Shown here: piece by piece, positions 1 to 10,895 of the stretch
Numbering within the stretch: the first letter of the stretch is position 1
How the letters are laid out: the number at the start of each line of letters is the position of its first letter
Virus genome (UHGV): UHGV-1779514
DNA length: 10,895 nt
Reading direction: 5' to 3' (one strand)
Source: a virus
Notes under the pieces: generated by a model
Databases searched by the model: none
Seen by the model: only the letters and a program-made list of their open reading frames with translations
What the model was told of the DNA's origin: nothing
Translations under genes and position numbers: made by a program

Positions 1-92
1 TCTTCTGCTGGCAGTACAACGTTGCTACCAGGTCCGTATGTTTCGCGCCACTGCTTGATTGTCAGTAGTCGCTCTTTGGTTATAGTGGTCAT
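1..92 (-). CDS. hypothetical phage protein, 3' end cut by window edge (begins MTTITKERLLTIKQWRETYGPGSNVVLPAEE)
   Basis: ATG at 92..90 overlaps the TGA stop (91..89) of the upstream gene (ATGA coupling). Frame stays open to position 1. Absent from ORF track because no stop lies in the window. Confidence 0.4.
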   Translation of the reverse strand, partial: MTTITKERLLTIKQWRETYGPGSNVVLPAE

Positions 93-298
93 TTGTTAAC
101 CCTCAAAACTTTATGCCCGGGCGCAAAAGCACGCGTTTTGTCTTTGCTTATTCGCCAGCCATCCTTGCGCGCCTCTTTTGCACAGCCAGCCCATGACGTA
201 CCTATATACTCACCGAAGTCTGGCACTGGATATACACCTTCCGTGCACTGACGGCAGTCACAATAGAGATGCATTGTGTAACTTGCGGCAATAGCCAT
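89..298 (-). CDS. small Cys-rich phage protein, 69 aa (CxCxxC plus a distal Cys; possible metal binding)
   Basis: ORF track entry. ATG at 298..296 sits immediately after the stop region of the 300..734 gene; its own stop overlaps the next ATG. Confidence 0.5.
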   Translation of the reverse strand: MAIAASYTMHLYCDCRQCTEGVYPVPDFGEYIGTSWAGCAKEARKDGWRISKDKTRAFAPGHKVLRVNK

Positions 299-299
299 A

Positions 300-734
300 T
301 CACCCTCCTTTACCCTGAAGCATGGCGTCGCTCCGCTCTATACCATCCAGCGCGATTCGCAGTGCCTGAATTGTGGTAGTGCTATCGTTTGGGGCTATTC
401 CATATCGCTCGAATACAGCTAAATGGTTGCGCATAATCTCAGGCGTAAGCTCTTTGTAAGCATAAGCAAGAGGCTCTGATGCATTATCCGGCACAACCGA
501 CGCAGGCGCGGCAGCATAAACAGGAATAACGTCCGCTTGCTCTTTATTGCTTTCATCCGTTAAAGCCCAGAATAATTTCCCGGCCGGATGTTTGAAAATA
601 TAAGCAATTGGTTCTGCTTCCAGCGATGCCAGAGCAATTTCATACGACCGTCGCTCAATATTGTCTCGCACGTCCAGGCTGCTGATACGCTCTTTGATTT
701 CTTTAATCAGTTCTTTGTCGGTTAAAGTAGTCAT
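300..734 (-). CDS. hypothetical phage protein, 144 aa
   Basis: ORF track entry. ATG at 734..732 preceded by AGAGGA with ~7 nt spacing. Upstream gene stop (740..738) lies 3 nt away. Confidence 0.55.
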   Translation of the reverse strand: MTTLTDKELIKEIKERISSLDVRDNIERRSYEIALASLEAEPIAYIFKHPAGKLFWALTDESNKEQADVIPVYAAAPASVVPDNASEPLAYAYKELTPEIMRNHLAVFERYGIAPNDSTTTIQALRIALDGIERSDAMLQGKGG

Positions 735-737
735 GTG

Positions 738-887
738 TTAGTCCTCTGTAGCAGGTGATACGCCGTAGTTGCATTCTTCATAGAATATGTCTCTGCCTAT
801 TTCTTCGGCATCCTCTGGCGTGTCTGCTTCAAACTCAACAACCTTGCAATCATTAAATCCTTCGATAGTCACGATGTACTTAGCCAT
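738..887 (-). CDS. small strongly acidic protein, 49 aa (MAKYIVTIEGFNDCKVVEFEADTPEDAEEIGRDIFYEECNYGVSPATED)
   Basis: Internal ATG of track ORF 738..959. Minus-sense reads AAAGGAGAGTGAT-ATG: a strong Shine-Dalgarno, with the upstream ORF's TGA stop 1 nt before the ATG. The longer track start would lack an RBS and overlap the upstream ORF. Confidence 0.55.
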   Translation of the reverse strand: MAKYIVTIEGFNDCKVVEFEADTPEDAEEIGRDIFYEECNYGVSPATED

Positions 888-888
888 A

Positions 889-1077
889 TCACTCTCCTTT
901 AGTGCGCAAGTGGTTTTTCCAGCGGTTTTGCGCCGCGCTGGGCTTTTTGCAAAAACCACAATCCATCATCCCGTAATATTTCATCAACCCCATCCGTCGG
1001 TTGCTGAGTCTCACCCACTGCCAGACGCCAGGAGCGTTTCTACGAACTAACAGAATCTTTGCTTTACGGTTTTTCAT
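889..1077 (-). CDS. small basic protein, 62 aa (MKNRKAKILLVRRNAPGVWQ...)
   Basis: ORF track entry. ATG at 1077..1075 overlaps the TGA stop of the upstream 58-codon ORF (ATGA). Stop is 1 nt before the ATG at 887. Confidence 0.4.
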   Translation of the reverse strand: MKNRKAKILLVRRNAPGVWQWVRLSNRRMGLMKYYGMMDCGFCKKPSAAQNRWKNHLRTKGE

Positions 1078-1250
1078 CTTACAGCGTACCCTTTCTTCCG
1101 CCTGTTCTGTGACGCAGTAGGCTTACGCTTTGCGGCAAAAGCCACCTGACCAAATGGATGGAGTACCGCTATCTTATGGTTGCTAATAACCAGCTCCACC
1201 ACACGCACAGGTCGCTGTAAAAAAAGTCGTTTTGCCTTACGGTTTTTCAT
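1074..1250 (-). CDS. small basic protein, 58 aa (MKNRKAKRLFLQRPVRVVELVISNHKIAVLHPFGQVAFAAKRKPTASQNRRKKGYAVR); shares its first 7 codons with the 889..1077 ORF
   Basis: Hand-translated; below the ORF-track size cutoff. ATG at 1250..1248, TGA at 1076..1074. The ~20-nt start region is repeated at 1057..1077 and 1231..1250. Confidence 0.35.
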   Translation of the reverse strand: MKNRKAKRLFLQRPVRVVELVISNHKIAVLHPFGQVAFAAKRKPTASQNRRKKGYAVR

Positions 1251-1342
1251 CGCTTTGCTCTCCTGCGTCTCTTTGCTGCTCGTCGTGCCGCTGCAATACC
1301 GGTATGGCGGCGCTTTGGTGCCGGGATGATGTTGTCAGCCAT
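1247..1342 (-). CDS. possible 31-aa Lys/Arg-rich micro-ORF (MADNIIPAPKRRHTGIAAARRAAKRRRRAKR)
   Basis: Hand-translated. ATG at 1342..1340; TGA stop overlaps the ATG of the 1074..1250 ORF (ATGA). No clear Shine-Dalgarno, so weak. Confidence 0.2.
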   Translation of the reverse strand: MADNIIPAPKRRHTGIAAARRAAKRRRRAKR

Positions 1343-1422
1343 CAGGACATGTGGCTTTGCAATTAGCGCAGAAGCCCAAAAACGAGTCGGGTACGGCAAC
1401 AAGCCGATACATGCCACACGCA

Positions 1423-1911
1423 CTACTCACCTCCGTTGATGCGAATGCCTGTTGCAATGCTGTTTATGATGCTGTCAGTGCATGGGGTAGAAAGCTGGGC
1501 ATCTCCAGCAATTTTCATGACATCAACATCTGCATATCGAATACCGAGGTGTATCAGACCGGCTATACCTGACTTAAGCCGAGCATTTTCCATAAACAGA
1601 TCCTTTGCCCGCTGTTTTTCTGCCTCAAGCTCAACGCGCAACTTCCCTACCGTTAGCGCAATATCCTCGTTCTCCTGGTCGCGTGATTTGATGTATTGCT
1701 GGTTCCTTTCCCGTTCATCCAGTAGTGCCAGCACGGTTTCTGGTCCGGCCAGAAATTTGAAGGCGTTGAGCGCATCAATATCCACACCGTAATCTTTAAG
1801 TTCCTGTTCACTTAACAAATCATCATCAGCTGGCAACATTAACAGGCGTTCCATTGCTGGAATTGCACGTTCCGCCGCCTCACGCAGTGCCTGGTAATTA
1901 ATTTCGCTCAC
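1423..1911 (-). CDS. Ead/Ea22-like phage protein, 162 aa
   Basis: ORF track entry. N-terminus MSEINYQALREAAERAIP is paralogous to the upstream gene's MTIDYQVLREAAEKATP; also a shared ...LALLDE / ...LELLGE segment. GTG start at 1911..1909 overlaps the upstream TGA (GTGA). Family assignment from memory. Confidence 0.6.
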   Translation of the reverse strand: MSEINYQALREAAERAIPAMERLLMLPADDDLLSEQELKDYGVDIDALNAFKFLAGPETVLALLDERERNQQYIKSRDQENEDIALTVGKLRVELEAEKQRAKDLFMENARLKSGIAGLIHLGIRYADVDVMKIAGDAQLSTPCTDSIINSIATGIRINGGE

Positions 1912-2675
1912 TGGTTGCCTCCTTTGCGAAGCTGGGCAGCAAAGTCAACTAACCACTCAGTCATTTCAACCTTCCCTACCAGATCTGAACCAGGGTGCAT
2001 ACAGCAATCACTCTGCGCCGCTTTGAAAGCCTTATACTCATATTCTTGGGCCACCAGATTTTTTGCAGCTTCTATAGCAGCATCCAATCCCTGCGCCCGC
2101 ACTTCAGCCAGGCATTTGCGAAACTCGGAAACGTACTGTTCGACGCTCATTCCCCAGCTAAGTGGACATTCATTGAATGTTTCGCCTTCGTGCTCTTCAT
2201 CAGGTAGCTCTTTGGTAAAGAACTCACGCTCAATGGCGTGGAGTGTGTCAGCAAAACGACGTAAGTTACTCAAACCTACCGTAATGGAGAATTCAGGAGC
2301 ATCACATCCGACGCCCATCTGCTGATAAACGGCGGTTTTGAAGGCCTTAAGCCCCGCATTTTCCGCCACCAGCGCCGCGAGATTAGTCTCAAGCTCTGCA
2401 ATTCGACACATAGCATCAATATTTGTGTCCTCCAGGCACTTAATTTCACCAAGCAGCTCCAGTGCAACCTTTGGGTTGAACGCGGCAACATGACGAGCGT
2501 TGTTCTCTGCATTTTTCTGTCCATCAAAGCCGGTCCATTTGATAACGTCTTCACATCGTTCATCACCGGGCGTGTGCACCGCATAAGTACCAGTATCCGT
2601 CGAAATAAATGCGACCCATTCGTCTGGTGTTGCCTTTTCTGCCGCCTCACGCAGTACCTGATAGTCAATTGTCAT
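1908..2675 (-). CDS. Ead/Ea22-like phage protein, ~255 aa
   Basis: Track ORF 1908..2684. I prefer the ATG at 2675..2673: it overlaps the upstream gene's TGA (ATGA), has GAAGG 9 nt upstream, and gives an N-terminus (MTIDYQVLREAAEKA) that aligns with the downstream paralog. Confidence 0.6.
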   Translation of the reverse strand: MTIDYQVLREAAEKATPDEWVAFISTDTGTYAVHTPGDERCEDVIKWTGFDGQKNAENNARHVAAFNPKVALELLGEIKCLEDTNIDAMCRIAELETNLAALVAENAGLKAFKTAVYQQMGVGCDAPEFSITVGLSNLRRFADTLHAIEREFFTKELPDEEHEGETFNECPLSWGMSVEQYVSEFRKCLAEVRAQGLDAAIEAAKNLVAQEYEYKAFKAAQSDCCMHPGSDLVGKVEMTEWLVDFAAQLRKGGNQ

Positions 2676-3298
2676 TCTCGCCATCCTTCACAGTTGTAAT
2701 CACTACAGCCTTCAAAATCATATGGGCTGTACTGCCAGGTTATTTTTCCGCAATGCGGACAATTCCAACGCACCTTCCCGCTTCGCGACTTCTTTCTTCT
2801 GTTTTGCTTTTTCAACCAGTCAGGCATGACCAAACCTGCGCCCTGAACCATTGTTCTGCGGTTAAAATTATTGATATTGAACGTCCGCCGCTTTGCTGCA
2901 TCGGCAATGGAAAATGGCAACCAAACTATTCCTGGTTCGTTTTTGTTGGCGACGCTAAAGATGGTTGCTTTACTGAAGTCATCGGTTGGCAATCCACCGT
3001 GTTGAAGCCAGTAAACATCGTTGCCGTTCCAGCTACCTTTTTTGTAGGCCACATACGCAGTGCAATCTGACTCAATCAGGCTTTCTGTAGGGATGTACTG
3101 GCAATCAACGTGCCACACAGCCATTGCATCCACACTATCGGCACAAACAGGCTGATCGATATCTCGCCCACAATTCCAGGCTTTTTGGGCTTCTTCCAGC
3201 GTGTAAACATGAGCGCGATCGATATCAGAACTGTAACCATTGCCGTTATGGCAATGGAATGAGGCGTTATTACCCACAGTTTCACGCAAACACATCAT
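2672..3298 (-). CDS. hypothetical Cys/His-rich phage protein, ~208 aa, with C-terminal CPHC...C..C zinc-ribbon-like motif
   Basis: Track ORF 2672..3352 begins with GTG and would overlap the upstream gene by 40 nt. ATG-ATG at 3298..3293 lies 14 nt after the upstream stop and is the more likely start. No family recognised. Confidence 0.5.
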   Translation of the reverse strand: MMCLRETVGNNASFHCHNGNGYSSDIDRAHVYTLEEAQKAWNCGRDIDQPVCADSVDAMAVWHVDCQYIPTESLIESDCTAYVAYKKGSWNGNDVYWLQHGGLPTDDFSKATIFSVANKNEPGIVWLPFSIADAAKRRTFNINNFNRRTMVQGAGLVMPDWLKKQNRRKKSRSGKVRWNCPHCGKITWQYSPYDFEGCSDYNCEGWRE

Positions 3299-3312
3299 GT
3301 AAAAACGGTTGC

Positions 3313-3552
3313 TCACTGGATGCCTCCTTGGTGGAGTTGCGCTGCGATGCACGAAAAAAAAGACTCCCGAGTATGACTGTTAAGAGCTGGTGCGAACGCC
3401 TCGTTAAGAACGGCGGCATCACAGCCGTCATCAATATAGAGCGCAATTTTTTTCTCCAGGCGCGCTTTGGCTTCCTGCAACTGCATACCCCGGCACGCAC
3501 GCGGGATATAATCAGCAATTTGAGCGATAGCTTTTTCGTTCTGTTTAAACAT
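3313..3552 (-). CDS. hypothetical phage protein, 79 aa
   Basis: ORF track entry. ATG at 3552..3550 preceded by GAGGTG (4-nt spacer). Overlaps the upstream ORF's 3' end by 8 nt. Confidence 0.5.
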   Translation of the reverse strand: MFKQNEKAIAQIADYIPRACRGMQLQEAKARLEKKIALYIDDGCDAAVLNEAFAPALNSHTRESFFSCIAAQLHQGGIQ

Positions 3553-3748
3553 GCTTCACCTCGATAGGCTTGATGGTGTCTAACAGCAGTCGGCGGCGCG
3601 TATTTTCTGCAAAATGGCGGCGTCCAGTTTCTTTGTGGTAAAACTCGTTTTTGCCAACGACCCACATCCGCTCTGTTTGGTGCAGTTTTTTTACCTTCGG
3701 GCCATCTTTGGTGATCACGGTACCGGTATGGGTTTTTACGATTGTCAT
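3545..3748 (-). CDS. hypothetical basic phage protein, 67 aa
   Basis: ORF track entry. ATG at 3748..3746 with a weak AGGT-type Shine-Dalgarno. First gene after an 83-nt gap downstream of the ASCH-like gene. Confidence 0.5.
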   Translation of the reverse strand: MTIVKTHTGTVITKDGPKVKKLHQTERMWVVGKNEFYHKETGRRHFAENTRRRLLLDTIKPIEVKHV

Positions 3749-3831
3749 GCCACTACCTATTCGAACAGATGAACGAGACAGGCCGATGCTCGTCCACCTG
3801 AAAAACTGACGATTTGATGCATACTCACGGT

Positions 3832-4560
3832 TTATTCCTGAATGCGCTTAAACTCGATTACCCACACCCAGGGATTAGCGTTCCAGCTTTCTTCACCATA
3901 GATGGATTCCCACAGGCGCTGGAACGCAACCTTGGCCATTGCGAAATCCCCCTTGGGAGTAAGGAATGTTCCCGGGTGATCAGGAAGCAAACTTCCAGCA
4001 GGCGGAACGCCCTCATCCCTTGCATCGCATTCGCTGATATTGTTCAACCGCTCAACGCGCACGTTGGTAATTTCCAACAGGATGCGTGATGCCCAGCGCG
4101 GCATGTGAATTGATGGACGCCACCCACCATCAAACTTTTCATTCACAGTGTGAGGTTTCCAGTCGGCATCATCGGGTATCGACCATAAACCGTAATCACC
4201 AGGCTTTTGCTCACAACTGGCCCGATAAATCCTTGCTGCGTTCTTCTCATCGCCACGACAAAGGTTGTCGTTCCAGTCCACACTGCAACCATCTTCATTG
4301 CCTAATATCGCCCATGTTTCACGAACCCAAATTCGATCGCCGACGATACCAAAGGGGCAATTGAAAACACTGCTTACACCATCAGCCCCGTACCACTGAA
4401 AACCTGCACCAATTTCCCTAACCATCACTGGTGCTTCTGGACCAACTTCCGCAGGCTGATTTTTCATTATCCGCCGCGTCTGCGTTTTCCTTCCTTCGAG
4501 GATGGCTCGGACCATCTCATCGTTGAAAATCATGCCGCGCTCTTTCACTTCGCCTTTCAT
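3832..4560 (-). CDS. ASCH-domain-like (PUA-fold) protein, 242 aa
   Basis: ORF track entry. N-terminal MIFNDEMVRAILEGRKTQTRR matches the G-x-K-T-x-x-R opening motif I associate with ASCH domains; C-terminal WVWVIEFKRI is also typical. True start may be the second ATG (Met10). GGGGGA lies 3 nt before the first ATG. Confidence 0.5.
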   Translation of the reverse strand: MKGEVKERGMIFNDEMVRAILEGRKTQTRRIMKNQPAEVGPEAPVMVREIGAGFQWYGADGVSSVFNCPFGIVGDRIWVRETWAILGNEDGCSVDWNDNLCRGDEKNAARIYRASCEQKPGDYGLWSIPDDADWKPHTVNEKFDGGWRPSIHMPRWASRILLEITNVRVERLNNISECDARDEGVPPAGSLLPDHPGTFLTPKGDFAMAKVAFQRLWESIYGEESWNANPWVWVIEFKRIQE

Positions 4561-4569
4561 GCATCCCCC

Positions 4570-4656
4570 TTACCCATGCGCGACGATGCCGCAAAAAGTG
4601 ATAGAGAACAGCCAGAAATAGATCGCGGCCATAATGATTTTGAATGCCGTGTTCAT
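4570..4656 (-). CDS. 28-codon hydrophobic micro-ORF (MNTAFKIIMAAIYFWLFSITFCGIVAHG), probable single transmembrane helix
   Basis: Hand-translated; below track cutoff. Minus-sense reads CAGGAGCTGAAAAT-ATG (AGGAG, 8-nt spacer). TAA stop at 4572..4570 is 9 nt before the ASCH-like ATG. Confidence 0.35.
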   Translation of the reverse strand: MNTAFKIIMAAIYFWLFSITFCGIVAHG

Positions 4657-4684
4657 ATTTTCAGCTCCTGTGATTGATTGGATA

Positions 4685-4714
4685 CATGCCGCGCCTTACG
4701 GCATGTTTTTATTT
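4685..4714 (+). terminator. intrinsic-terminator-like hairpin on + strand (CATGCCG-cgcctta-CGGCATG followed by TTTTTATTTT)
   Basis: 7-8 bp GC-rich stem then a T-rich run on the + strand only. No + strand gene ends here; minus-sense flank is not U-rich. Confidence 0.4.
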
Positions 4715-4726
4715 TCACTTTCTCTG

Positions 4727-4757
4727 GTTTAAAAATCAAGATTTATTAGAGCAATTA
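4727..4757. repeat. downstream copy of ~30-bp imperfect direct repeat (GTTTAAAAAT-N7-TTATTAGAGCAAT) at the cassette boundary
   Basis: 13-mer TTATTAGAGCAAT at 4743..4755 is identical to 6884..6896; the flanking TTTAAAAAT is also shared. About 26 of 33 positions match. Overlaps the HAD gene stop codon. Confidence 0.6.
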
Positions 4758-5261
4758 TTGTTGATGGAGAAGCGCGTTTTCATACTCCCTGACCATTAAC
4801 GTAAGTACGCCGTGACTCCTGAAAACACGCGCCACTTCAATCTTATCTTCCAGCGCGAACGCAATTTTACTTAGACCAATTTTCTTCAGGAGATCAATCT
4901 TTGCTGGACCGTCATTTCTGTCATCGGTGGCAGGACGCATAGATAGCAAAGGCTCCGCCCCATTTGTTACGTGCTTACGCAACCAGGCTCGTGTTTTATC
5001 CCTTGCTATCTCACAGCGCCCGGTTACAAACCAGAGGGTGTAAATGCCGGACAACTGGCGCACCATATCAATAACTGGAGTGATGGGAGCATCAGTGTCA
5101 CAGGCAAGGTTAAACTCGTTCCAGTGCTCTGTTAATGCACCTTTGCCAGGTGGTGGAAGTAAATGCAGTCTGTCTTCCGTTGCCTCTGATATCGTCCCAT
5201 CAATATCTACTATGACGATGTACGGACGTTCCTGGTGTGCGTGTTTATTGAAAATACTCAA
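4755..5261 (-). CDS. HAD-superfamily phosphatase, 168 aa (possibly polynucleotide 3'-phosphatase or nucleotidase type)
   Basis: ORF track entry. Motif I VDIDGT (DxDGT) near the N-terminus, later TGR and ALEDK acidic motif. TTG start at 5261..5259 with AGGAGG 4 nt upstream and an in-frame TGA just before it. Subfamily is a guess. Confidence 0.6.
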   Translation of the reverse strand: MSIFNKHAHQERPYIVIVDIDGTISEATEDRLHLLPPPGKGALTEHWNEFNLACDTDAPITPVIDMVRQLSGIYTLWFVTGRCEIARDKTRAWLRKHVTNGAEPLLSMRPATDDRNDGPAKIDLLKKIGLSKIAFALEDKIEVARVFRSHGVLTLMVREYENALLHQQ

Positions 5262-5278
5262 ATGCCCTCCTCATTGGA

Positions 5279-5314
5279 CGAAAAAAATGCTGGTGGGAGC
5301 ACTCCACCAGCATT
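5279..5314 (-). terminator. strong rho-independent terminator (minus sense) between the 420-aa gene and the HAD gene
   Basis: Perfect 10-11 bp GC-rich stem (5286..5296 pairs with 5304..5314, loop 5297..5303). Minus-sense RNA then carries a run of 7 U. + strand flank is not U-rich, so it is unidirectional. Confidence 0.65.
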
Positions 5315-5333
5315 AAAAGTGACACTGTAACTA

Positions 5334-6596
5334 TCAGCGAACGTAAATAGTGCCGCCGTTCTCTTTTTCCCATGCATCGCTACGTGCATAGCAAACATCG
5401 AGAAGTCTTCTTGCCGCAGTTTCCTCTAAACCCAATTCGACAACCAACTGCTCATGACGGCGGGTAACCACATCAAACAGGGTATGCAACCCTTTAGTTG
5501 CCAGATCATCAATGAATTCCGGTTCGAACGGCAGCTCTGTATCTGCCAACATAACCTCTTGCGCCCACTCAACTCGACGGACCAATTCCGGGCGGCGGCT
5601 TTCCATCTCTTTACAGATCAATTCATGGAAGAACTCTACCCAACCTTCCGGCTGGAACTCGCGGAAAATTGCCAACGGCTGGAAGTTTGGCATCAACCAT
5701 TCGTTGATTCGGATATCAATGGCATAGCCCATGTCGCAGCAGAACTGATAAGCAAAGTCCAGCTTAGAAACGATATAAGGACGCTCGTTATTGAACTCTT
5801 TAGGCGATGAGATCCCATAAGCCAGGAGGCGCGGGAAGAAGGAGATTTGCCCTAACGTCGGATGAAGTTTGCTTGCAGGGAAACGGCGCTCAGTAATGCC
5901 ATACATTTCCTTCTTGAGCGTCGCAAATTTGGCATTCTCATTAACCAGCGCGGTAACCTCTGCTTTTTTATTAGCAAATGCCACGCGCGCCTCGCTTGCA
6001 TCTTTAATAGTTTTTTTGAGCTGTTGGTTAAGGTCGGCGACCTGCTTACGCAGTTCCTGTCGCTCGCTTTTAGCTTTGTTATAGCGTTTCTCAAGGTTAA
6101 AAGGATCAAGTTTCATGATCTCTTTATATTGAGATTTTAGCGTTGAAATCTGTGAGTTCCGCAGTTCAACCATCGCGGTCATTTCATTGAGTTTTGTTTC
6201 CAGCTCAATGCTTATACGTTCGGCATTATCAGCACGCTGGTTGGCGTCATGCGTCGCATCGTCGATCGCGTCCTGTTGCTGGCGTTTCAAATGTTCAATT
6301 TCCAGCTGAAGCTCTTCAATTTCTTTACCCTTCAGACCGAGATCCAACTGCATATTTTCAGCTGCATCTACCAGGGAGTTATGGCTATCAGCTTCTGCGT
6401 TATAAACATCAATAAGCTGTGCGTGAAGCATCTCCGCTGACTGAACCGCATTATCAAAAAAACGCGCTGTGAGGTCATCACAACTAACGCGGCGTTGCGC
6501 GGCCCGGATGTTCTGGATAATGGCCGGGATACCGGCATTCAGGACATCAGGGATACATACATTTTCGATTGATTGGTTTTGTGCTGAAGTGCTCAT
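5334..6596 (-). CDS. coiled-coil protein of unknown function, 420 aa (coiled coil ~aa 85-230, globular C-terminal domain ~190 aa)
   Basis: ORF track entry. ATG at 6596..6594 lies 1 nt after the TGA of the upstream 72-aa ORF. Heptad-rich E/K/Q/L region. No Walker A, ligase KxDG or nuclease motif recognised. Confidence 0.65.
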   Translation of the reverse strand: MSTSAQNQSIENVCIPDVLNAGIPAIIQNIRAAQRRVSCDDLTARFFDNAVQSAEMLHAQLIDVYNAEADSHNSLVDAAENMQLDLGLKGKEIEELQLEIEHLKRQQQDAIDDATHDANQRADNAERISIELETKLNEMTAMVELRNSQISTLKSQYKEIMKLDPFNLEKRYNKAKSERQELRKQVADLNQQLKKTIKDASEARVAFANKKAEVTALVNENAKFATLKKEMYGITERRFPASKLHPTLGQISFFPRLLAYGISSPKEFNNERPYIVSKLDFAYQFCCDMGYAIDIRINEWLMPNFQPLAIFREFQPEGWVEFFHELICKEMESRRPELVRRVEWAQEVMLADTELPFEPEFIDDLATKGLHTLFDVVTRRHEQLVVELGLEETAARRLLDVCYARSDAWEKENGGTIYVR

Positions 6597-6597
6597 T

Positions 6598-6816
6598 TCA
6601 AAGTTCCGTATTAGCTTGTGCTTCGGTCATTTTTCCTAAGTATGAAGGAGGAAGGACTACGCAATTTGTATCCAGTCCCTCACCTATGGCAGCCTGTAAA
6701 ATTCTGGCTAAGGTGAGTCTCTTGTTGCGATACCTGGTGATGACATGCCTGATACCGCCGGTCGGCGTAACAAAGGCGATCAGCCAGTAGTGATATTTCC
6801 GTCGGAATGGCCACAT
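6598..6816 (-). CDS. small basic protein, 72 aa, first gene of the cassette
   Basis: ORF track entry. ATG at 6816..6814 preceded by AAGGTG (4-nt spacer). Stop tightly coupled to the 420-aa gene. No family recognised. Confidence 0.45.
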   Translation of the reverse strand: MWPFRRKYHYWLIAFVTPTGGIRHVITRYRNKRLTLARILQAAIGEGLDTNCVVLPPSYLGKMTEAQANTEL

Positions 6817-6830
6817 AGTGCACCTTGTAG

Positions 6831-6843
6831 ATTGCTCTAATAA
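6831..6843. repeat. inverted copy (ATTGCTCTAATAA) of the boundary 13-mer; forms a 13-bp palindrome with 6884..6896 around the terminator hairpin
   Basis: Exact reverse complement of TTATTAGAGCAAT at 6884..6896, 40 nt apart. Confidence 0.6.
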
Positions 6844-6876
6844 AAAACGTGATGAGTGTACATCACGTTTTAAAAA
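6838..6876 (-). terminator. hairpin terminator after the GT8-like gene (stem AAAACGTGATG / CATCACGTTTT, loop 6855..6860); A-run upstream and T-run downstream, so potentially bidirectional
   Basis: 11-bp inverted repeat at 6844..6854 and 6861..6871. Minus-sense RNA has UUUUUUAUUA after the stem. Stem is moderately AT-rich, so strength is uncertain. Confidence 0.45.
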
Positions 6877-6898
6877 TATGGAATTATTAGAGCAATAT
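6868..6898. repeat. upstream copy of the ~30-bp imperfect direct repeat (TTTTAAAAAT-N7-TTATTAGAGCAAT) at the cassette boundary
   Basis: See 4727..4757. This copy ends 2 nt before the GT8-like gene's TAA stop (6898..6900). Confidence 0.6.
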
Positions 6899-7599
6899 TA
6901 TTCTGATTCTCGCTCAAAAAATGAGCTGATAAGGGGAAGCCAATCCTCTGACACTTCGCGAGGTCGCGGTTTGCCGTGGAAAAAGATTATTCGGCAGTCT
7001 TTTGGTAATGCCCCATTCCCCCTGGAGTAACGCGCGCTCGCATATTTTGAACCAGGTTCCACAACATCGGCCTTGTAACTTACAAACCATCCTGGATACA
7101 GATCCTGAAATGCTGGTGTATCATCGCCCATAACCTTTCGTAAGAACCCCTGGTCACCCCAACACTCAGTAGTGACACAACGAGAAATCCAACCTTCCGG
7201 ATCTTGCCAGAATGCACTCCAGATATGCGCTTTAACACTATTTGGTATCCACAGGGCACCGCTGCCACGATATTGTGGATGGTAAAAATCCCTAAGCATG
7301 GTGAAGCTGGTTGGTGGATGCTCTAGGATTGGGCGTATATCACCGGCAATAACCGTGTCCAAATCCAGATAGAACAGATCATCGGTTATATCCGGTCGGA
7401 ACAACTCGATTTTCGCCCACCAGCCACGGCACTTTTGCCACTGGTTGATCAATGGGACAACTTTGACGCCAGGTACATGTAAACGCTTCAGGTCTGTCAG
7501 GCAAATAATTTCATAGCCTTTTGGCAGTTGATTAACCAGCCACTGCACATCGGAAGCGTTATAGTCACCACCAGAGCGAAAAACTAAAGCAATCTTCAT
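6898..7599 (-). CDS. GT8-family-like (glycogenin / LPS alpha-glycosyltransferase-like) putative retaining glycosyltransferase, 233 aa
   Basis: ORF track entry. Ordered motifs resemble GT8 as I recall it: N-terminal ALVF..GGDY, DxD-type LDLDT near aa 80, GDQG near aa 150, FFHGKPRP near the C-terminus. ATG at 7599..7597 overlaps the phosphatase TGA (ATGA); AGGTGA 9 nt upstream. Confidence 0.5.
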
Positions 7600-8273
7600 G
7601 CTGCACCATCACCTTTCACTTTCATCAATGTCAGGTTTCCGCAAAATACGGCACCAGTGTCGATATACTGCTGATTCCAGAATGTCTTCGGGCTTTTCAC
7701 CGGAGTGTGACCAAAGATAAAACGATCTGCGCCCGAAATTTCGCCACCAATATCATCCATCGAATCACTGATACGCTCGCGCGCCCAGACAACGTTGAAA
7801 AGCGGCACCTCCTTACCGAATTGGTATTCATTATCCGGATAGTCGGCATGGGCTATAACGATAGTTTCTTGCCCGGTGTTCAACTCAATGATATAGGGCA
7901 GACGCTTTACCAGCTCCACCAGCGCCCAGGCTAATATTTCCTGATCAGTGTCCAGCATGAAGAACCATTGTCCGCCATTCATTAGCCAGTTATTCACGTT
8001 GCCATCTGGACTTAACGCATCAATCATCAGCCGCTCATGGTTCCCCATCACTGCCCTGAACCAGGGCATCTGCAATAGTTCCAGACATTCGACATTTTCA
8101 GTACCGCGATCGATAAGGTCGCCGACCGATATCAGTAAATCCTGCGCCGGGTCAAAATCCACACGATGGAGTTCGGACATCAGTCTGGTGTAGCAACCAT
8201 GCAGATCACCAACAACCCAGACATTCCTGTATTTGGTACCGTCGATACGGTGATAAATTGTGGGTGCCATCAT
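7596..8273 (-). CDS. lambda-type (PPP family) Ser/Thr protein phosphatase / metallophosphoesterase, ~225 aa
   Basis: Canonical GDLHG, GDLIDRG and GNHE motifs, with the overall sequence closely resembling lambda PPase and E. coli PrpA/PrpB as I recall them. Track ORF starts at 8288; the ATG at 8273..8271 overlaps the upstream TGA (ATGA) and matches the lambda PPase N-terminal length, so I prefer it. Confidence 0.85.
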
Positions 8274-8896
8274 GTATTCTTCAGCCATTCTTTAAGAGTC
8301 ATCTGCGGAATACCTCCCATTTTCCCGCATGAAACAACGTCAATCTGTTCACGCGCAGACTGGAATAACAAAGGCAGGTGACTTAGATTTTTTGGCGTGC
8401 CGCCGGAGTGAACGCGTAGTTCTTGCGTAGCGTCAACGCCCACCAGAGCTACATGTTTGAATCCGATATGGAAAGCCAGGTTCAGAGCACCATATGCACT
8501 ATTGCCGCTGGCAATTTCATTCTCATCTTCGCAAAGGCCGAAATGTGCGGACCAGCGCCACGCCCACCACTCGGGAGAATTCGTATTTTTTGGCTCCATG
8601 CCGCGTTCAGCCACACGACGGAAGCACAGAACGCCATCTCTGACTTCACGTTCTTTAACATCGGGTAGTGCCATGCAATAACAAACACCACGGCGACGGC
8701 GGCCACGACCAACGCGCCGCATATTGTCTGGGGATGGATCAAGGGTGAAAAAATAAGAAGCGCGGTTAAGCCAGTCGATGGCCCCATTGACCGCTATAAT
8801 CGGCACTCCGCGCGGCGCAACAAAGTTTGCGGCGCTTGGGCCACTGCCGACGATAATAACGCGATCACTGCCTCTAAATTTATTCTTGGGAAACAT
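8270..8896 (-). CDS. GT42/DUF115-like (Cst-II / Maf-like) putative nonulosonate-type glycosyltransferase, paralog B, 208 aa
   Basis: ORF track entry. N-terminal VIIVGSGPS...IIAVN, then [25 protein letters not shown] and a following HSGG. Paralogous to 8794..9456. ATG at 8896..8894 with AGGAG ~12 nt upstream. Family call from memory. Confidence 0.45.
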
Positions 8897-9456
8897 TGAA
8901 TTGCACTGCTCCTACTTGCATTCAAAATATGTAAATCTGCGTGTTTTTTGCGGGTATCCAGGAACTGCTGTTGCCATTTTGAAATAGACACCTGCGTTGG
9001 ATTCCGTAGTGCTTGAGGGTGCGCGCCATGCCAATGAAGGCCGTTTTGCAGAGAACAGTCATAGCCGACTAATACCACTACTTCAGCCCCTGATTCAGCA
9101 GCCAGACTGATAGCCTGCGCGCCGCTATTTACCCCTTCCGCCGGTCCACAATATCGCCTGTACTCCAACGAAAATGATTTCGCCGCCGCCAGGTTGGCTG
9201 TCACTTTGCGGAATCTCCCTCCCGGTATGGTGGATCCGTATTGCTTCCACCATGACAAATCACCGGCGTATAAGGCATAAATGTCATCGAACATCTGCCA
9301 GGAATTGTTAACCGCGATGATTGAACAGCCAGTTTTTTCTATAGCAGCACAGTCCTCACGAGTGAGTGACGGACCGCTACCGACACAAAAAACAGTCCTA
9401 GTCGCCCTGGGTGGTATGTTCATTCTCAGCTGCAAATTCAGCCTCCAGGCGAGCAT
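8794..9456 (-). CDS. GT42/DUF115-like (Cst-II / Maf-like) putative glycosyltransferase, paralog A, 220 aa
   Basis: ORF track entry. VFCVGSGPS...IIAVN, then NSGAQAISLAAESGAEVVVLVGYD and HWHGAH. Start could be the ATG at 9456 or at 9423; neither has a strong Shine-Dalgarno. 3' end overlaps paralog B by 103 nt in another frame. Confidence 0.45.
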   Translation of the reverse strand: MLAWRLNLQLRMNIPPRATRTVFCVGSGPSLTREDCAAIEKTGCSIIAVNNSWQMFDDIYALYAGDLSWWKQYGSTIPGGRFRKVTANLAAAKSFSLEYRRYCGPAEGVNSGAQAISLAAESGAEVVVLVGYDCSLQNGLHWHGAHPQALRNPTQVSISKWQQQFLDTRKKHADLHILNASRSSAIQCFPRINLEAVIALLSSAVAQAPQTLLRRAECRL

Positions 9457-9514
9457 TCATTTCAGCGATTACAGGGTCCACTACAGCATCTGTTTCCTGT
9501 TCATTACGCGGCAT
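9398..9514 (-). CDS. possible small acidic ORF, 38 aa from the internal ATG (MPRNEQETDAVVDPVIAEMNARLEAEFAAENEHTTQGD)
   Basis: Track ORF 9398..9586 starts at GTG with no Shine-Dalgarno; the ATG at 9514 also lacks one. Overlaps the start of paralog A. Weak call. Confidence 0.2.
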   Translation of the reverse strand: MPRNEQETDAVVDPVIAEMNARLEAEFAAENEHTTQGD

Positions 9515-9619
9515 GACCGATGCCAGCGACTCATAATTAACCTTGGATGACACGATTATTCTCCCGATGTTAAAGTGCACTACCACAAAGAGCGCACATG
9601 CACTAATTAATTTATTATT

Positions 9620-9952
9620 TTAAGCGGCATGCAACCACTTATCGCCGTTCAATACATGCTCAATAGCCTCACCCTTTTTAAGACTTATGTATTCCAGGAT
9701 GGCGGTAATCGCTTGTTCTGCACCATACGCAAGAACAACGTAGTAGCCTTCCTCTCTAAGCCTGCGCATCCAGGCGATCTGCTCTTTCGTCGGGGCTTTA
9801 CCATTTGGTTCTTTAAGCTCAATTCGCATGCCGTGATAAATACCGCATGCTTTATCGAGACTCATGTCCGGATAACCTTTTTTCTGCCCTTCAGCCTTCA
9901 TTTTCCCGGCGGTTGCTTTTGAACGCTTCCCTCCGTTAGGCGTTGCATGCAA
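9620..9952 (-). CDS. VRR-NUC domain (PD-(D/E)xK) nuclease, C-terminal portion; gene appears frame-disrupted at its 5' end
   Basis: Track ORF starts at TTG. GYPDMSL ... IELKEP ... KEQIAWMRRLREEGYYVV matches the VRR-NUC pattern (G.PD, ExK, Q..W...L...G). The same frame stays open upstream to ~10132 with no start codon, encoding CEHFEQVFIFDYFERKHPDIYEL. Confidence 0.6.
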   Translation of the reverse strand: MHATPNGGKRSKATAGKMKAEGQKKGYPDMSLDKACGIYHGMRIELKEPNGKAPTKEQIAWMRRLREEGYYVVLAYGAEQAITAILEYISLKKGEAIEHVLNGDKWLHAA

Positions 9953-10187
9953 CAGCTCATAGATGTCAGGGTGCTTGCGTTCGAAGTAATCAAAAATGAA
10001 AACCTGCTCGAAGTGCTCGCAATTTCCGTCGCGCAGGTCTGGGTTCTTTGCCAGTGCTGCAAGTGCCTTCGCATGTGGAGAAACTTCTTTTACCGGCGCA
10101 AGCGATTTTTGGTTTTTGGCCTGGACCGCCCCTTATTTCGACGCTCACTAAAAGCCTGAAACTCTTCCTCAGTAAAGCGCAACATAA

Positions 10188-10433
10188 TCAGTCAAATCCT
10201 GCCGGTCGCATGCCATATTTACGCTGTTTTGCGGCCTGCTCTTCCCTGTGCCATTGCGCACATTCAGCGTCACAATAAATGCCTGATTCAATCGATTCAT
10301 TGCAGTAACGACACTTCCCTGTAAATACCTGGCTCACGACCTGTGCCTGCTTTCTGATGTTATCGATGGCCATGTCTTTGAGAGCTTCTAACTGATTCAT
10401 GCTCAGCTCTGCATCATCAACACGTTCTGCCAA
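10188..10433 (-). CDS. TraR/DksA-family-like C4 zinc-finger protein, 81 aa
   Basis: ORF track entry. IDNIRKQ ... CRYCNESIESGIYCDAEC ... KQRK resembles TraR as I recall it (INRIRQKI ... CEAC ... CVEC ... RQRK). TTG start with GAGGAA ~6 nt upstream. My base count near 10380 disagrees by 1 nt with the track frame, so the start is +/-1. Confidence 0.5.
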   Translation of the reverse strand: MAERVDDAELSMNQLEALKDMAIDNIRKQAQVVSQVFTGKCRYCNESIESGIYCDAECAQWHREEQAAKQRKYGMRPAGFD

Positions 10434-10579
10434 TTTTGTTTCCTCGTGAAGAACCTACTTAAGGGCAGAATGATACATTTCACAATCAAAATTGCACTAA
10501 TAATTTTCTTTTATTGAGTTAAATATTCAACAAATGACTAGCAGTAGAATCACCATCATCTATTTCTGGCAGGCTGACT
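10434..10579. promoter_or_regulatory. AT-rich divergent intergenic region, likely carrying the promoter(s) of the leftward operon and of the + strand gene
   Basis: ~150 nt non-coding and AT-rich between oppositely oriented gene starts. I found no convincing -35/-10 pair by eye. Confidence 0.3.
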
Positions 10580-10696
10580 ATGGCTACATCAATCACTACA
10601 ACCCAAAGCACCCGGCAATATCCTCTGTCGCGGTATGACGACCGCAACATAGCCGATCCAATACTCAGGGCAGAGCTACGCAAAGAGGTGATGCTT

Positions 10697-10895
10697 ATGT
10701 GTGAATCGAACGACAAGAATCTGACGATTTATTACGTTCTTCCCGATGAGCAATATCGCCCGGATTTGCTGGCTTACCGTATGTGGGGCATAGCAGAGCT
10801 ACGCTGGGTTGTGACGCTCGCCGCCGGGCTTGAGGATGAGTCTCAGGGTATGACTGTTGGCAAAAAATTAAAACTCCCACCTGCCACATGGATCC
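10697..10895 (+). CDS. partial CDS, 3' end beyond window; LysM-like / phage tail protein X-like N-terminus (MCESNDKNLTIYYVLPDEQYRPDLLAYRMWGIAELRWVVTLAAGLEDESQGMTVGKKLKLPP)
   Basis: AAAGAGGTG lies 6 nt before the ATG at 10697. Frame is open to the window end with E. coli-like codon choice. An in-frame ATG at 10580 has no Shine-Dalgarno and rarer codons. Resemblance to P2 gpX is from memory and weak. Confidence 0.3.
   Translation, partial: MCESNDKNLTIYYVLPDEQYRPDLLAYRMWGIAELRWVVTLAAGLEDESQGMTVGKKLKLPPATWI

Follow-up and report, generated by a model that had tools for sequence, protein, structure and literature searches.

What is built by four overlapping genes at positions 6898-9456 of the virus genome UHGV-1779514, and do all four of them serve a single pathway? 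The window, i.e., the whole stretch of 10,895 nucleotides (nt) that was analysed, had been described in a first-pass annotation as carrying a putative four-gene glycan-modification module in a lambdoid setting, with two GT42/DUF115-like paralogs, a lambda-type phosphatase, and a GT8-like glycosyltransferase. The four genes are pmgO, pmgP, ppp, and pmgQ of phage P1, and the unit that is conserved elsewhere consists of three of them, pmgO-pmgP-pmgQ (O-P-Q). Our preferred reading, to which we give about an even chance, is that O-P-Q glycosylates a protein, probably one of the virion, in the cytoplasm, and that the phosphatase Ppp works independently of it.

A three-gene unit within a P1 operon

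Megablast comparison of positions 6800-9600 gave 99.5% identity to phage P1 and 99.7% identity to a P1-like phage, and the window was collinear with P1 over positions 3866-10895 at 98.7% identity. The setting is a P1-type phage-plasmid rather than a lambdoid early region, and the lambdoid context was therefore rejected; names and annotations for the genes date back to the record of the P1 genome. The four co-directional minus-strand open reading frames (ORFs) coincide with pmgO (8794-9456; 220 amino acids, aa), pmgP (8270-8896; 208 aa), ppp (7596-8288; 230 aa), which lies between pmgP and pmgQ, and pmgQ (6898-7599; 233 aa). They overlap at each junction, by 103 nt out of frame between pmgO and pmgP, where a TAGGAG ribosome-binding site is located 13 nt 5' of the pmgP ATG, by 19 nt between pmgP and ppp, and by 4 nt (ATGA) between ppp and pmgQ. 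The consecutive arrangement reported earlier was thus confirmed, and the motifs ascribed to the four products could be read in their translations. The P1 record labels pmgO, pmgP, and pmgQ as "putative morphogenetic function," citing no experiment, and calls ppp a phosphatase "by homology"; in Escherichia coli genomes, three of the four genes carry the PGAP label "hypothetical protein." All four genes are under purifying selection, with nonsynonymous and synonymous values (pN and pS) of 0.20-0.28 and 0.78-0.88, respectively, relative to a P1-like element from Pantoea. The whole pmgO-pmgQ block was found in about 10% of complete E. coli genomes (552 of 5,426), where P1-like phage-plasmids carry it; 780 of the 796 matched places were on plasmids.

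The diversity of loci outside P1 was taken from a scan of species-representative genomes and from contig look-ups; a scan of viral contigs with the PmgP alignment recovered only P1-like loci at 99-100% identity, and an exhaustive profile search of 1.84e9 proteins placed the PmgP family in 549 clusters at 50% identity. O, P, and Q occurred together without Ppp in approximately 14 other locus types, and all three were present in most loci with enough flanking sequence, namely the P1-like L090-092, Citrobacter phage phiNP (L003), L002, L004, L005, L007, the Xanthomonas jumbo phage XacN1 (L008), L094-098, L100, L104, L105, and L108; only P and Q were detected in L101, L103, L109, and L110. Among the carriers of the trio were E. 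coli phage EP_H11 and a Bacteroidota element, and an Alloalcanivorax prophage had the order P-methyltransferase-Q-O after its lysis genes. The conserved unit therefore comprises three genes and not four, which revises the module proposed at first.

The three genes are also repeatedly fused to one another. An O::P fusion was found (P0092), and in the metagenomic phage L002 such a fusion is followed by Q; P::Q (P0221 and P0287) and Q::P (P0311) fusions were detected as well. The overlap of O and P is conserved in other loci. These fusions and the conserved overlap suggest that the three products act in one pathway and that PmgO and PmgP probably form a complex. Other fusions join members of the trio to methyltransferases (Q::P::methyltransferase in P0272, methyltransferase::P in P0305, and TylF-methyltransferase::Q in XacN1 ORF373). 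A gene placed between P and Q encodes a Sulfotransfer_2 protein in L005, S-adenosylmethionine-dependent methyltransferases in L100 and L108, and, in L007, a protein with a weak group-1 glycosyltransferase match under the Pfam cut-off, whereas the trio is followed by an FkbM methyltransferase gene in L105 and by a weak Nucleotid_trans-like match in L002 and L004. The sugar methyl- and sulfotransferases and the additional glycosyltransferase-like genes that accompany the trio point to a glycan as its product.

In contrast to these tailoring genes, no phosphatase gene was found beside O-P-Q in any non-P1 locus type examined, nor in any natural fusion. P1-like elements are the only ones with ppp between P and Q; the gene occurs alone in the nin-like region of phage D6 (90% DNA identity) and is the only part of the block that is matched in about 200 E. 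coli genomes. For these reasons Ppp is treated as a passenger, most likely acting independently of the cassette.

Folds and motifs of the predicted enzymes

PmgO and PmgP share the motif GSGPS, at residues 26-30 and 17-21, respectively. In PmgO the second motif reads NSGAQAISLAAESGAEVVVLVGYD and is followed by HWHGAH. The motif SG..A..LA, which had been ascribed to both paralogs, holds for PmgO (NSGAQA), but PmgP deviates from it by having S-A in place of S-G (NSAYGA) and continues with RVHSGG...LSHLP. The motif residues of PmgO, PmgP, and PmgQ are invariant or nearly so across their homologues, and sequence alignments of homologues identified H141 and H143 of PmgO and H173 of PmgP as invariant histidines. 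Residues 1-16 of PmgO are not conserved in homologues and were modelled with a pLDDT (predicted local distance difference test) below 50, and the true start is probably Met12 (ATG 9423). Judged by profile comparison, PmgP is a distant paralog of PmgO, as the two families aligned with an hhalign probability of 98.3% (E 2e-14) when the fusion protein was left out of the alignment; PmgP itself matched PHROG 2111 at 3e-132.

The designation of this pair as GT42/DUF115-like stood with regard to fold and motif, although the profile scores were below the thresholds of Pfam- and CAZy-type models. PF01973 (MptE-like/DUF115) scored 23.4 bits against PmgO and 20.9 bits against PmgP, both under the gathering threshold of 34.6 bits; similar sub-threshold matches were obtained for 32 of 33 PmgO relatives and all 28 PmgP relatives, and a PF01973 match was precomputed for some relatives of the two proteins. 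Of the pair, a structure was predicted for P1 PmgO alone, and this model has the characteristic MptE-like/DUF115 fold, with fold comparison matching Maf, MptE, and Cst-I. Structural neighbours in BFVD include a herpesvirus sialyltransferase and DUF115 proteins. The N-terminal GxGPS and SG...GxD motifs align with those of Cst-II (GT42). The PmgO profile, however, reached only E 0.12-0.5 against Cst-II, which is not significant and derives from two short motifs, and the PmgP profile did not match Cst-II. PmgO H141 and H143 lie 8-10 residues after the GxD strand, a spot that we take to differ from that of the catalytic His188 of Cst-II. The tie of PmgO and PmgP to GT42/DUF115 is one of fold and motif, not of formal membership.

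A relationship to the Kdo-III transferase WaaZ (Kdo, 3-deoxy-D-manno-octulosonic acid) was also considered. The best score against the WaaZ model (TIGR04437/PF27901) was 20.3 bits, compared with an equivalog cut-off of 200 bits, and matches at E <= 1 were limited to the N-terminal motif and to 11 of 54 members. A specific relationship was not supported, given that hhalign comparison with E. coli WaaZ yielded a probability of 13-20% and that the shared motifs are generic nucleotide-binding ones. As single sequences, PmgO, PmgP, and PmgQ gave only this faint WaaZ match in NCBIfam and only chance-level matches in the PDB (E 0.085 for PmgQ).

PmgQ contains the motifs DLD (79-81), GDQG (148-151), and HGKP (208-211). 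K63, D79, D81, G148, D149, H208, G209, and P211 were invariant across 28 sequences, and Q150 was nearly so; these residues correspond to the metal and diphosphate motifs of GT8 (K63, DxD 79-81, GDQ, and H208-G-x-P) and align with the equivalent motifs of GlaT1, glycogenin, and WaaJ (DxD and the distal His, the Lys, GDQ, and HxxGxxKP(W)). Fold comparison assigned PmgQ a GT-A fold with GT8 enzymes as its nearest structural neighbours. On the other hand, no Pfam model, including Glyco_transf_8 (PF01501), matched PmgQ at E <= 1, and its identity to GT8 proteins (glycogenin, the Skp1 alpha-galactosyltransferase GlaT1, LgtC, GlyE, and WaaJ) is 13-16%. With 233 aa, it is close to a minimal catalytic domain, and its relatives (41 matches in a word-indexed search) form a small family of their own. 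The earlier GT8-like designation is therefore kept for the fold, the nearest neighbours, and the motifs: PmgQ is predicted to be a GT8-like retaining GT-A glycosyltransferase, not a formal GT8 member.

For the fourth product, the lambda-type phosphatase proposed previously was confirmed. Ppp matched Pfam Metallophos at 9e-16 (59.3 bits against a cut-off of 21.5 bits) and the NinI-like PHROG at 5e-113, and its translation contains GDLHG, GDLIDRG, and GNHE. It scored 272 and 240 bits against NCBIfam protein-Ser/Thr phosphatase models, under the PrpA/PrpB equivalog cut-offs, and P1 annotation gives 64% identity to lambda protein phosphatase. By these matches, Ppp is an ordinary lambda/NinI-type Ser/Thr phosphatase of the PPP family, which shares with lambda NinI and E. 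coli PrpA and PrpB the Metallophos domain and the motifs GDxHG, GDxxDRG, and GNHE. Unlike the lambda phosphatase gene, ppp lies in a P1 operon between two putative glycosyltransferase genes and not in a nin region.

Proposed glycan, its acceptor, and competing explanations

We infer transferase activity for PmgO, PmgP, and PmgQ, and the mechanism that we propose has the three enzymes build a short glycan together. PmgO and PmgP, with the nucleotide-binding fold of the Maf flagellin glycosyltransferases and Cst sialyltransferases, would probably work as a hetero-oligomer. This fold family typically uses ulosonic acids activated by cytidine monophosphate (CMP), and the only such donor in E. coli K-12 is CMP-Kdo. 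PmgQ would be a metal-dependent retaining transferase that adds a hexose from a uridine diphosphate (UDP)-sugar. No donor-biosynthesis genes were seen in the loci examined, so the donors are presumably universal host metabolites, which points to CMP-Kdo and a UDP-hexose. In other phages, the glycan may be further methylated, sulfated, or extended by the products of genes that lie between P and Q or that are placed beside or fused to the trio. The most likely acceptor would be a protein, and for phages one of the virion, e.g., from the capsid, its decoration, or the fibres. The ppp gene would have been inserted between P and Q within the P1 lineage.

The genomic neighbourhoods of the trio and its regulation in P1 favour a protein or virion acceptor. 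Most phage loci examined were in late or structural operons, and five were among head genes. Three of these (L004, L005, and L100, from Pseudomonas, marine, and Zhongshania prophages) have the cassette directly 3' of the major capsid gene and ahead of the head-tail connector genes. It was also found among head genes just before connector genes in a Methylophilaceae contig (L101) and in the metagenomic contig ERZ1426824, and between lysis genes and terminase in L002, phiNP (L003, with the order O-P-Q), and L108; in a Brevundimonas prophage (L104), it follows the gene for a Mu-F-like head protein. In P1, the C1 operator Oppp (Op83; 9597-9613, plus strand), a 17-mer (CATGCACTAATTAATTT) found exactly in the window, is annotated just downstream of the sigma-70 promoter PpmgN and 5' of pmgN, and it keeps the operon off in the lysogen. 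The late promoter LPpmgL (10522-10540, minus strand), also an exact match to P1 annotation, is upstream of pmgL-pmgM-pmgN-pmgO, and read-through from it may provide the block with a late-transcription input; no convincing terminator was seen between LPpmgL and pmgQ, where the nine weak consensus matches are mostly inside coding sequence. The cassette would accordingly be silent in the lysogen and expressed during lytic growth, downstream of the late promoter.

An adhesin is bracketed by the trio in five species-level genomes of Pseudescherichia spp. and Enterobacteriaceae UBA7338 (L094-L098), in which Q and P are located just upstream of a gene for an inverse autotransporter adhesin of 1166 aa with seven Big_1 (Ig-like) domains, and O is 60 nt downstream of it. 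These loci (e.g., L094 1220-14338) form a chromosomal island of Big_1 surface proteins interleaved with PmgQ, PmgP, and PmgO homologues; no phage genes were seen among the genes examined, and the island also encodes an 845-aa protein with RCC1-like repeats. In XacN1, ORF372 (7954-11220 of L008), directly downstream of O-P-methyltransferase::Q, encodes 1088 aa with a long Pro/Thr/Ser-rich linker and a PKD-like domain, and because this composition is typical of O-glycosylated proteins, its product is a candidate acceptor. A 129-aa protein encoded between the major capsid gene and the cassette of L005 (7166-7555) contains PTEPTE repeats and weakly matched DUF7210 and the phiKZ capsid decoration protein gp35; it is possibly a glycosylated decoration protein. 

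Extended to its full specificity, the proposal is that O-P-Q is a previously unrecognised virion/surface-protein glycosylation system of Gram-negative phages, in which a heteromeric, minimal Maf-fold pair takes CMP-Kdo and the GT8-like enzyme takes UDP-hexose, and in which the glycan, often methylated or sulfated, is placed on proteins of the capsid, its decoration, or the fibres and, in some Enterobacteriaceae, on an inverse-autotransporter adhesin. In this detailed form we consider it less likely than not.

Several observations weigh against this proposal. The four genes were all non-essential for P1 plaque formation in a CRISPR interference (CRISPRi) screen (PMC10695390), and their single deletions are given as non-essential in that paper, which cites PMC9024508; in the latter, for which pmg and upf genes were knocked out, 24 of 29 P1 knockouts had no plaquing or antirestriction phenotype. 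The P1 virion proteomics and cryo-electron microscopy papers do not mention glycans, and no biochemical or proteomic sign exists that any P1 protein is glycosylated. Matches to the GT42, DUF115, and WaaZ models were all under the family thresholds, and CMP-Kdo as the donor would follow solely from fold analogy and from host metabolite availability. Not all neighbourhoods are structural, given that the cassettes of L105 and XacN1 adjoin ribonucleotide reductase genes and those of L103 and L109 adjoin fimbrial operons, and sites after lysis genes are also typical of lysogenic-conversion "morons." The latter two loci (L103 8274-10604 and L109 6307-7612) are Q-P pairs near chaperone-usher fimbrial operons on enterobacterial contigs, with O undetected, and the L103 pair sits inside a remnant lysis cassette. 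Finally, in the Pantoea P1-like element, Ppp has been kept between P and Q at 59% protein identity, which leaves some room for a lineage-specific functional tie of Ppp to the cassette.

The strongest rival to protein glycosylation, which we nevertheless consider unlikely, is remodelling of the lipopolysaccharide (LPS) core. The enzymes would then act in the manner of WaaZ and WaaJ on nascent lipid A-core at the inner face of the cytoplasmic membrane, and would mask or truncate the core glucose that serves as the P1 receptor, thus excluding superinfecting phages or preventing progeny from adhering to cell debris. LPS core glucose is the receptor of P1, both CMP-Kdo and UDP-glucose are LPS precursors in every Gram-negative host, and GT8 and WaaZ-like enzymes build LPS cores. 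The interval between lysis genes and terminase is a classic site for surface-conversion genes, and phage glycosyltransferase clusters have been interpreted in a jumbo-phage review as modifiers of outer polysaccharides (PMC7824862). The PmgP-like domains also have the faint WaaZ matches described above, but their similarity is that of generic nucleotide-binding motifs. Furthermore, the P1 operon is C1-repressed in the lysogen and therefore does not represent lysogenic conversion, and phages with the cassette have hosts whose outer cores are unrelated, among them Pseudomonas, Xanthomonas, Brevundimonas, marine Gammaproteobacteria, and a Bacteroidota genome. The five loci among head genes, three of them next to capsid, and the bacterial version that brackets an adhesin gene also argue against an LPS target. 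No Gtr-type membrane components were found, and none of the four proteins had a Gtr-family match in Pfam, PHROG, and NCBIfam; the PmgO and PmgQ models are compact globular domains. Gtr-type and other lysogenic-conversion modification of LPS would require expression in the lysogen, whereas in P1 the start of the unit is covered by Oppp.

Three other explanations were considered. A true four-gene pathway, in line with the module of the first-pass annotation, would make Ppp an integral step, with either a phosphorylated sugar or glycan intermediate or the acceptor protein as its possible substrate, whether glycosylation comes first or follows. It would account for the translational coupling of ppp on both sides and for its conserved position in the element whose Ppp has diverged, and it would liken Ppp to the glycan-tailoring enzymes that other phages encode between P and Q. 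It is quite unlikely, since the phosphatase accompanies O-P-Q in no non-P1 locus type examined and in no fusion, and ppp travels alone in D6 and in many E. coli genomes. Lambda protein phosphatase, which P1 Ppp resembles, acts on proteins rather than sugars. It is very unlikely that PmgO and PmgP are not glycosyltransferases but kinases of the MptE or thiamin-pyrophosphokinase kind, making a phosphorylated small molecule or modifying a nucleotide, with PmgQ and perhaps Ppp acting on the same metabolite. The sole Pfam match is indeed termed "MptE-like," and two loci adjoin nucleotide-metabolism genes. However, this likeness is of shared fold, both nucleotide-binding motifs align with Cst-II, the BFVD neighbours include the herpesvirus sialyltransferase and DUF115 proteins, and the constant partner is a GT8-like enzyme, often together with sugar methyl- or sulfotransferases and glycosyltransferase-like genes. 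The last explanation is that the enzymes glycosylate a nucleic acid, phage DNA or another, and so counter restriction; modification of phage DNA had been raised in the first-pass annotation. Phage DNA glycosyltransferases are a known kind (bioRxiv 10.1101/2023.12.21.572611), and the L105 and XacN1 cassettes are near genes for DNA polymerase, ribonucleotide reductase, and dCMP deaminase. Against this, none of the loci examined had a base-hydroxymethylating or other precursor enzyme next to the cassette, head or late modules house most of the phage loci, an adhesin gene is bracketed in one locus, and there were no PADLOC matches. P1 DNA is a standard restriction substrate. In PMC9024508, those 24 P1 knockouts that plaqued normally likewise showed no antirestriction change, and according to PMC10695390 the four genes are among the non-essential deletions of that study. 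A nucleic-acid target is thus highly improbable.

The preferred reading of O-P-Q as a protein glycosylation cassette has partial parallels in known systems. Maf proteins (DUF115/PF01973; e.g., Magnetospirillum Maf, PDB 5mu5) share the fold of PmgO and PmgP. Maf proteins are, however, approximately 600 aa long with extra N- and C-terminal domains, whereas PmgO and PmgP each consist of the bare domain alone (about 200 aa), form an overlapping or fused paralogous pair, score under the Pfam gathering threshold, and have no flagellin or nonulosonic-acid biosynthesis genes nearby. Campylobacter Cst-I and Cst-II (GT42) act on lipooligosaccharide; the similarity of PmgO to them is not significant (E 0.12), and E. 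coli K-12 makes no CMP-sialic acid. In the Aah/AIDA-I and TibC/TibA systems, a heptosyltransferase gene lies beside the adhesin gene, and the cytoplasmic transferase diverts the LPS precursor ADP-heptose onto the adhesin. The bracketing of an inverse autotransporter by O, P, and Q and the presumed use of CMP-Kdo resemble this arrangement; the analogy is one of synteny, and the systems differ in having one enzyme rather than three, with an unrelated enzyme fold and donor. The precedent for a virion acceptor is found in mycobacteriophages (Che8 and relatives), whose phage-encoded glycosyltransferases decorate their own capsid in the host cytoplasm, as summarised in PMC11256854, citing Freeman et al. 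2023. Those phages infect Actinobacteria and carry the glycosyltransferase genes near the right end of the genome rather than in the head module (PMC11256854).

The first-pass annotation had called the combination undescribed, which is correct insofar as no study of the cassette or of what it does came up in literature searches on the gene names, on DUF115/MptE in phages, on WaaZ/Kdo transferases in prophages, and on capsid glycosylation, and the XacN1 paper does not discuss ORF371-375. On the other hand, the genes themselves, the database labels "glycosyltransferase" and "alpha-2,3-sialyltransferase," and phage glycosylation systems as a kind are already known. What appears to be new is a compact and widely dispersed three-enzyme cassette that combines a paralogous Maf-fold pair with a GT8-like enzyme. 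The same applies to the tailoring genes that vary between loci, to the link with late and head modules, and to the position of Ppp outside the core. P1 is among the phages most used in genetics, yet the labels of three of these genes still read "hypothetical" or "putative morphogenetic." If correct, virion glycosylation would be extended from mycobacteriophages, the only precedent found, to Gram-negative phages, with consequences for how therapeutic phages are recognised and cleared by the immune system, for virion stability, and for receptor or defence evasion, and O-P-Q would offer a compact set of three enzymes with which proteins could be glycosylated in the E. coli cytoplasm. If LPS remodelling were true instead, the cassette would be a lytic-phase receptor-masking system.

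Flanking genes and the replaced region

The transcription unit is headed by pmgN (9398-9553, minus strand), an ORF of 51 codons that overlaps the start of pmgO and whose coordinates transfer exactly from P1 annotation. No pmgN homologue was noted beside O-P-Q elsewhere, and pmgN may not belong to the cassette. It was essential in the CRISPRi screen, yet its deletion was viable (PMC10695390); the pmgN crRNA site adjoins PpmgN/Oppp and the frameshift-prone pmgM. In the window, pmgM (9620-10198; 192 aa in P1) has lost its frame through a deletion of 13 nt, and its 5' end contains in-frame stops; what remains is a 110-codon ORF (9620-9952) that encodes a VRR-NUC-like nuclease domain (E 1.4e-4, slightly short of the Pfam threshold). 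The 3' boundary of the unit is marked by OpmgRa/OpmgRb and the promoter PpmgR (6831-6896), which match P1 annotation exactly; this C1-controlled promoter region of the next unit, pmgR-pmgS, begins 2 nt past the stop codon of pmgQ.

Positions 1-3865 of the window had no match to P1 71.4-90.2 kb, the part of P1 that was compared, and the accessory region downstream of pap/pmgT is replaced there relative to P1. The replaced region contains two Ead/Ea22-like paralogs (1423-1911 and 1908-2684). The second phosphatase gene of the region, pap (4755-5261), matched the HAD phosphatase domain of polynucleotide kinase-phosphatase (PF25109, 3e-11), a similarity that points to nucleic-acid end repair rather than to the annotated "acid phosphatase."

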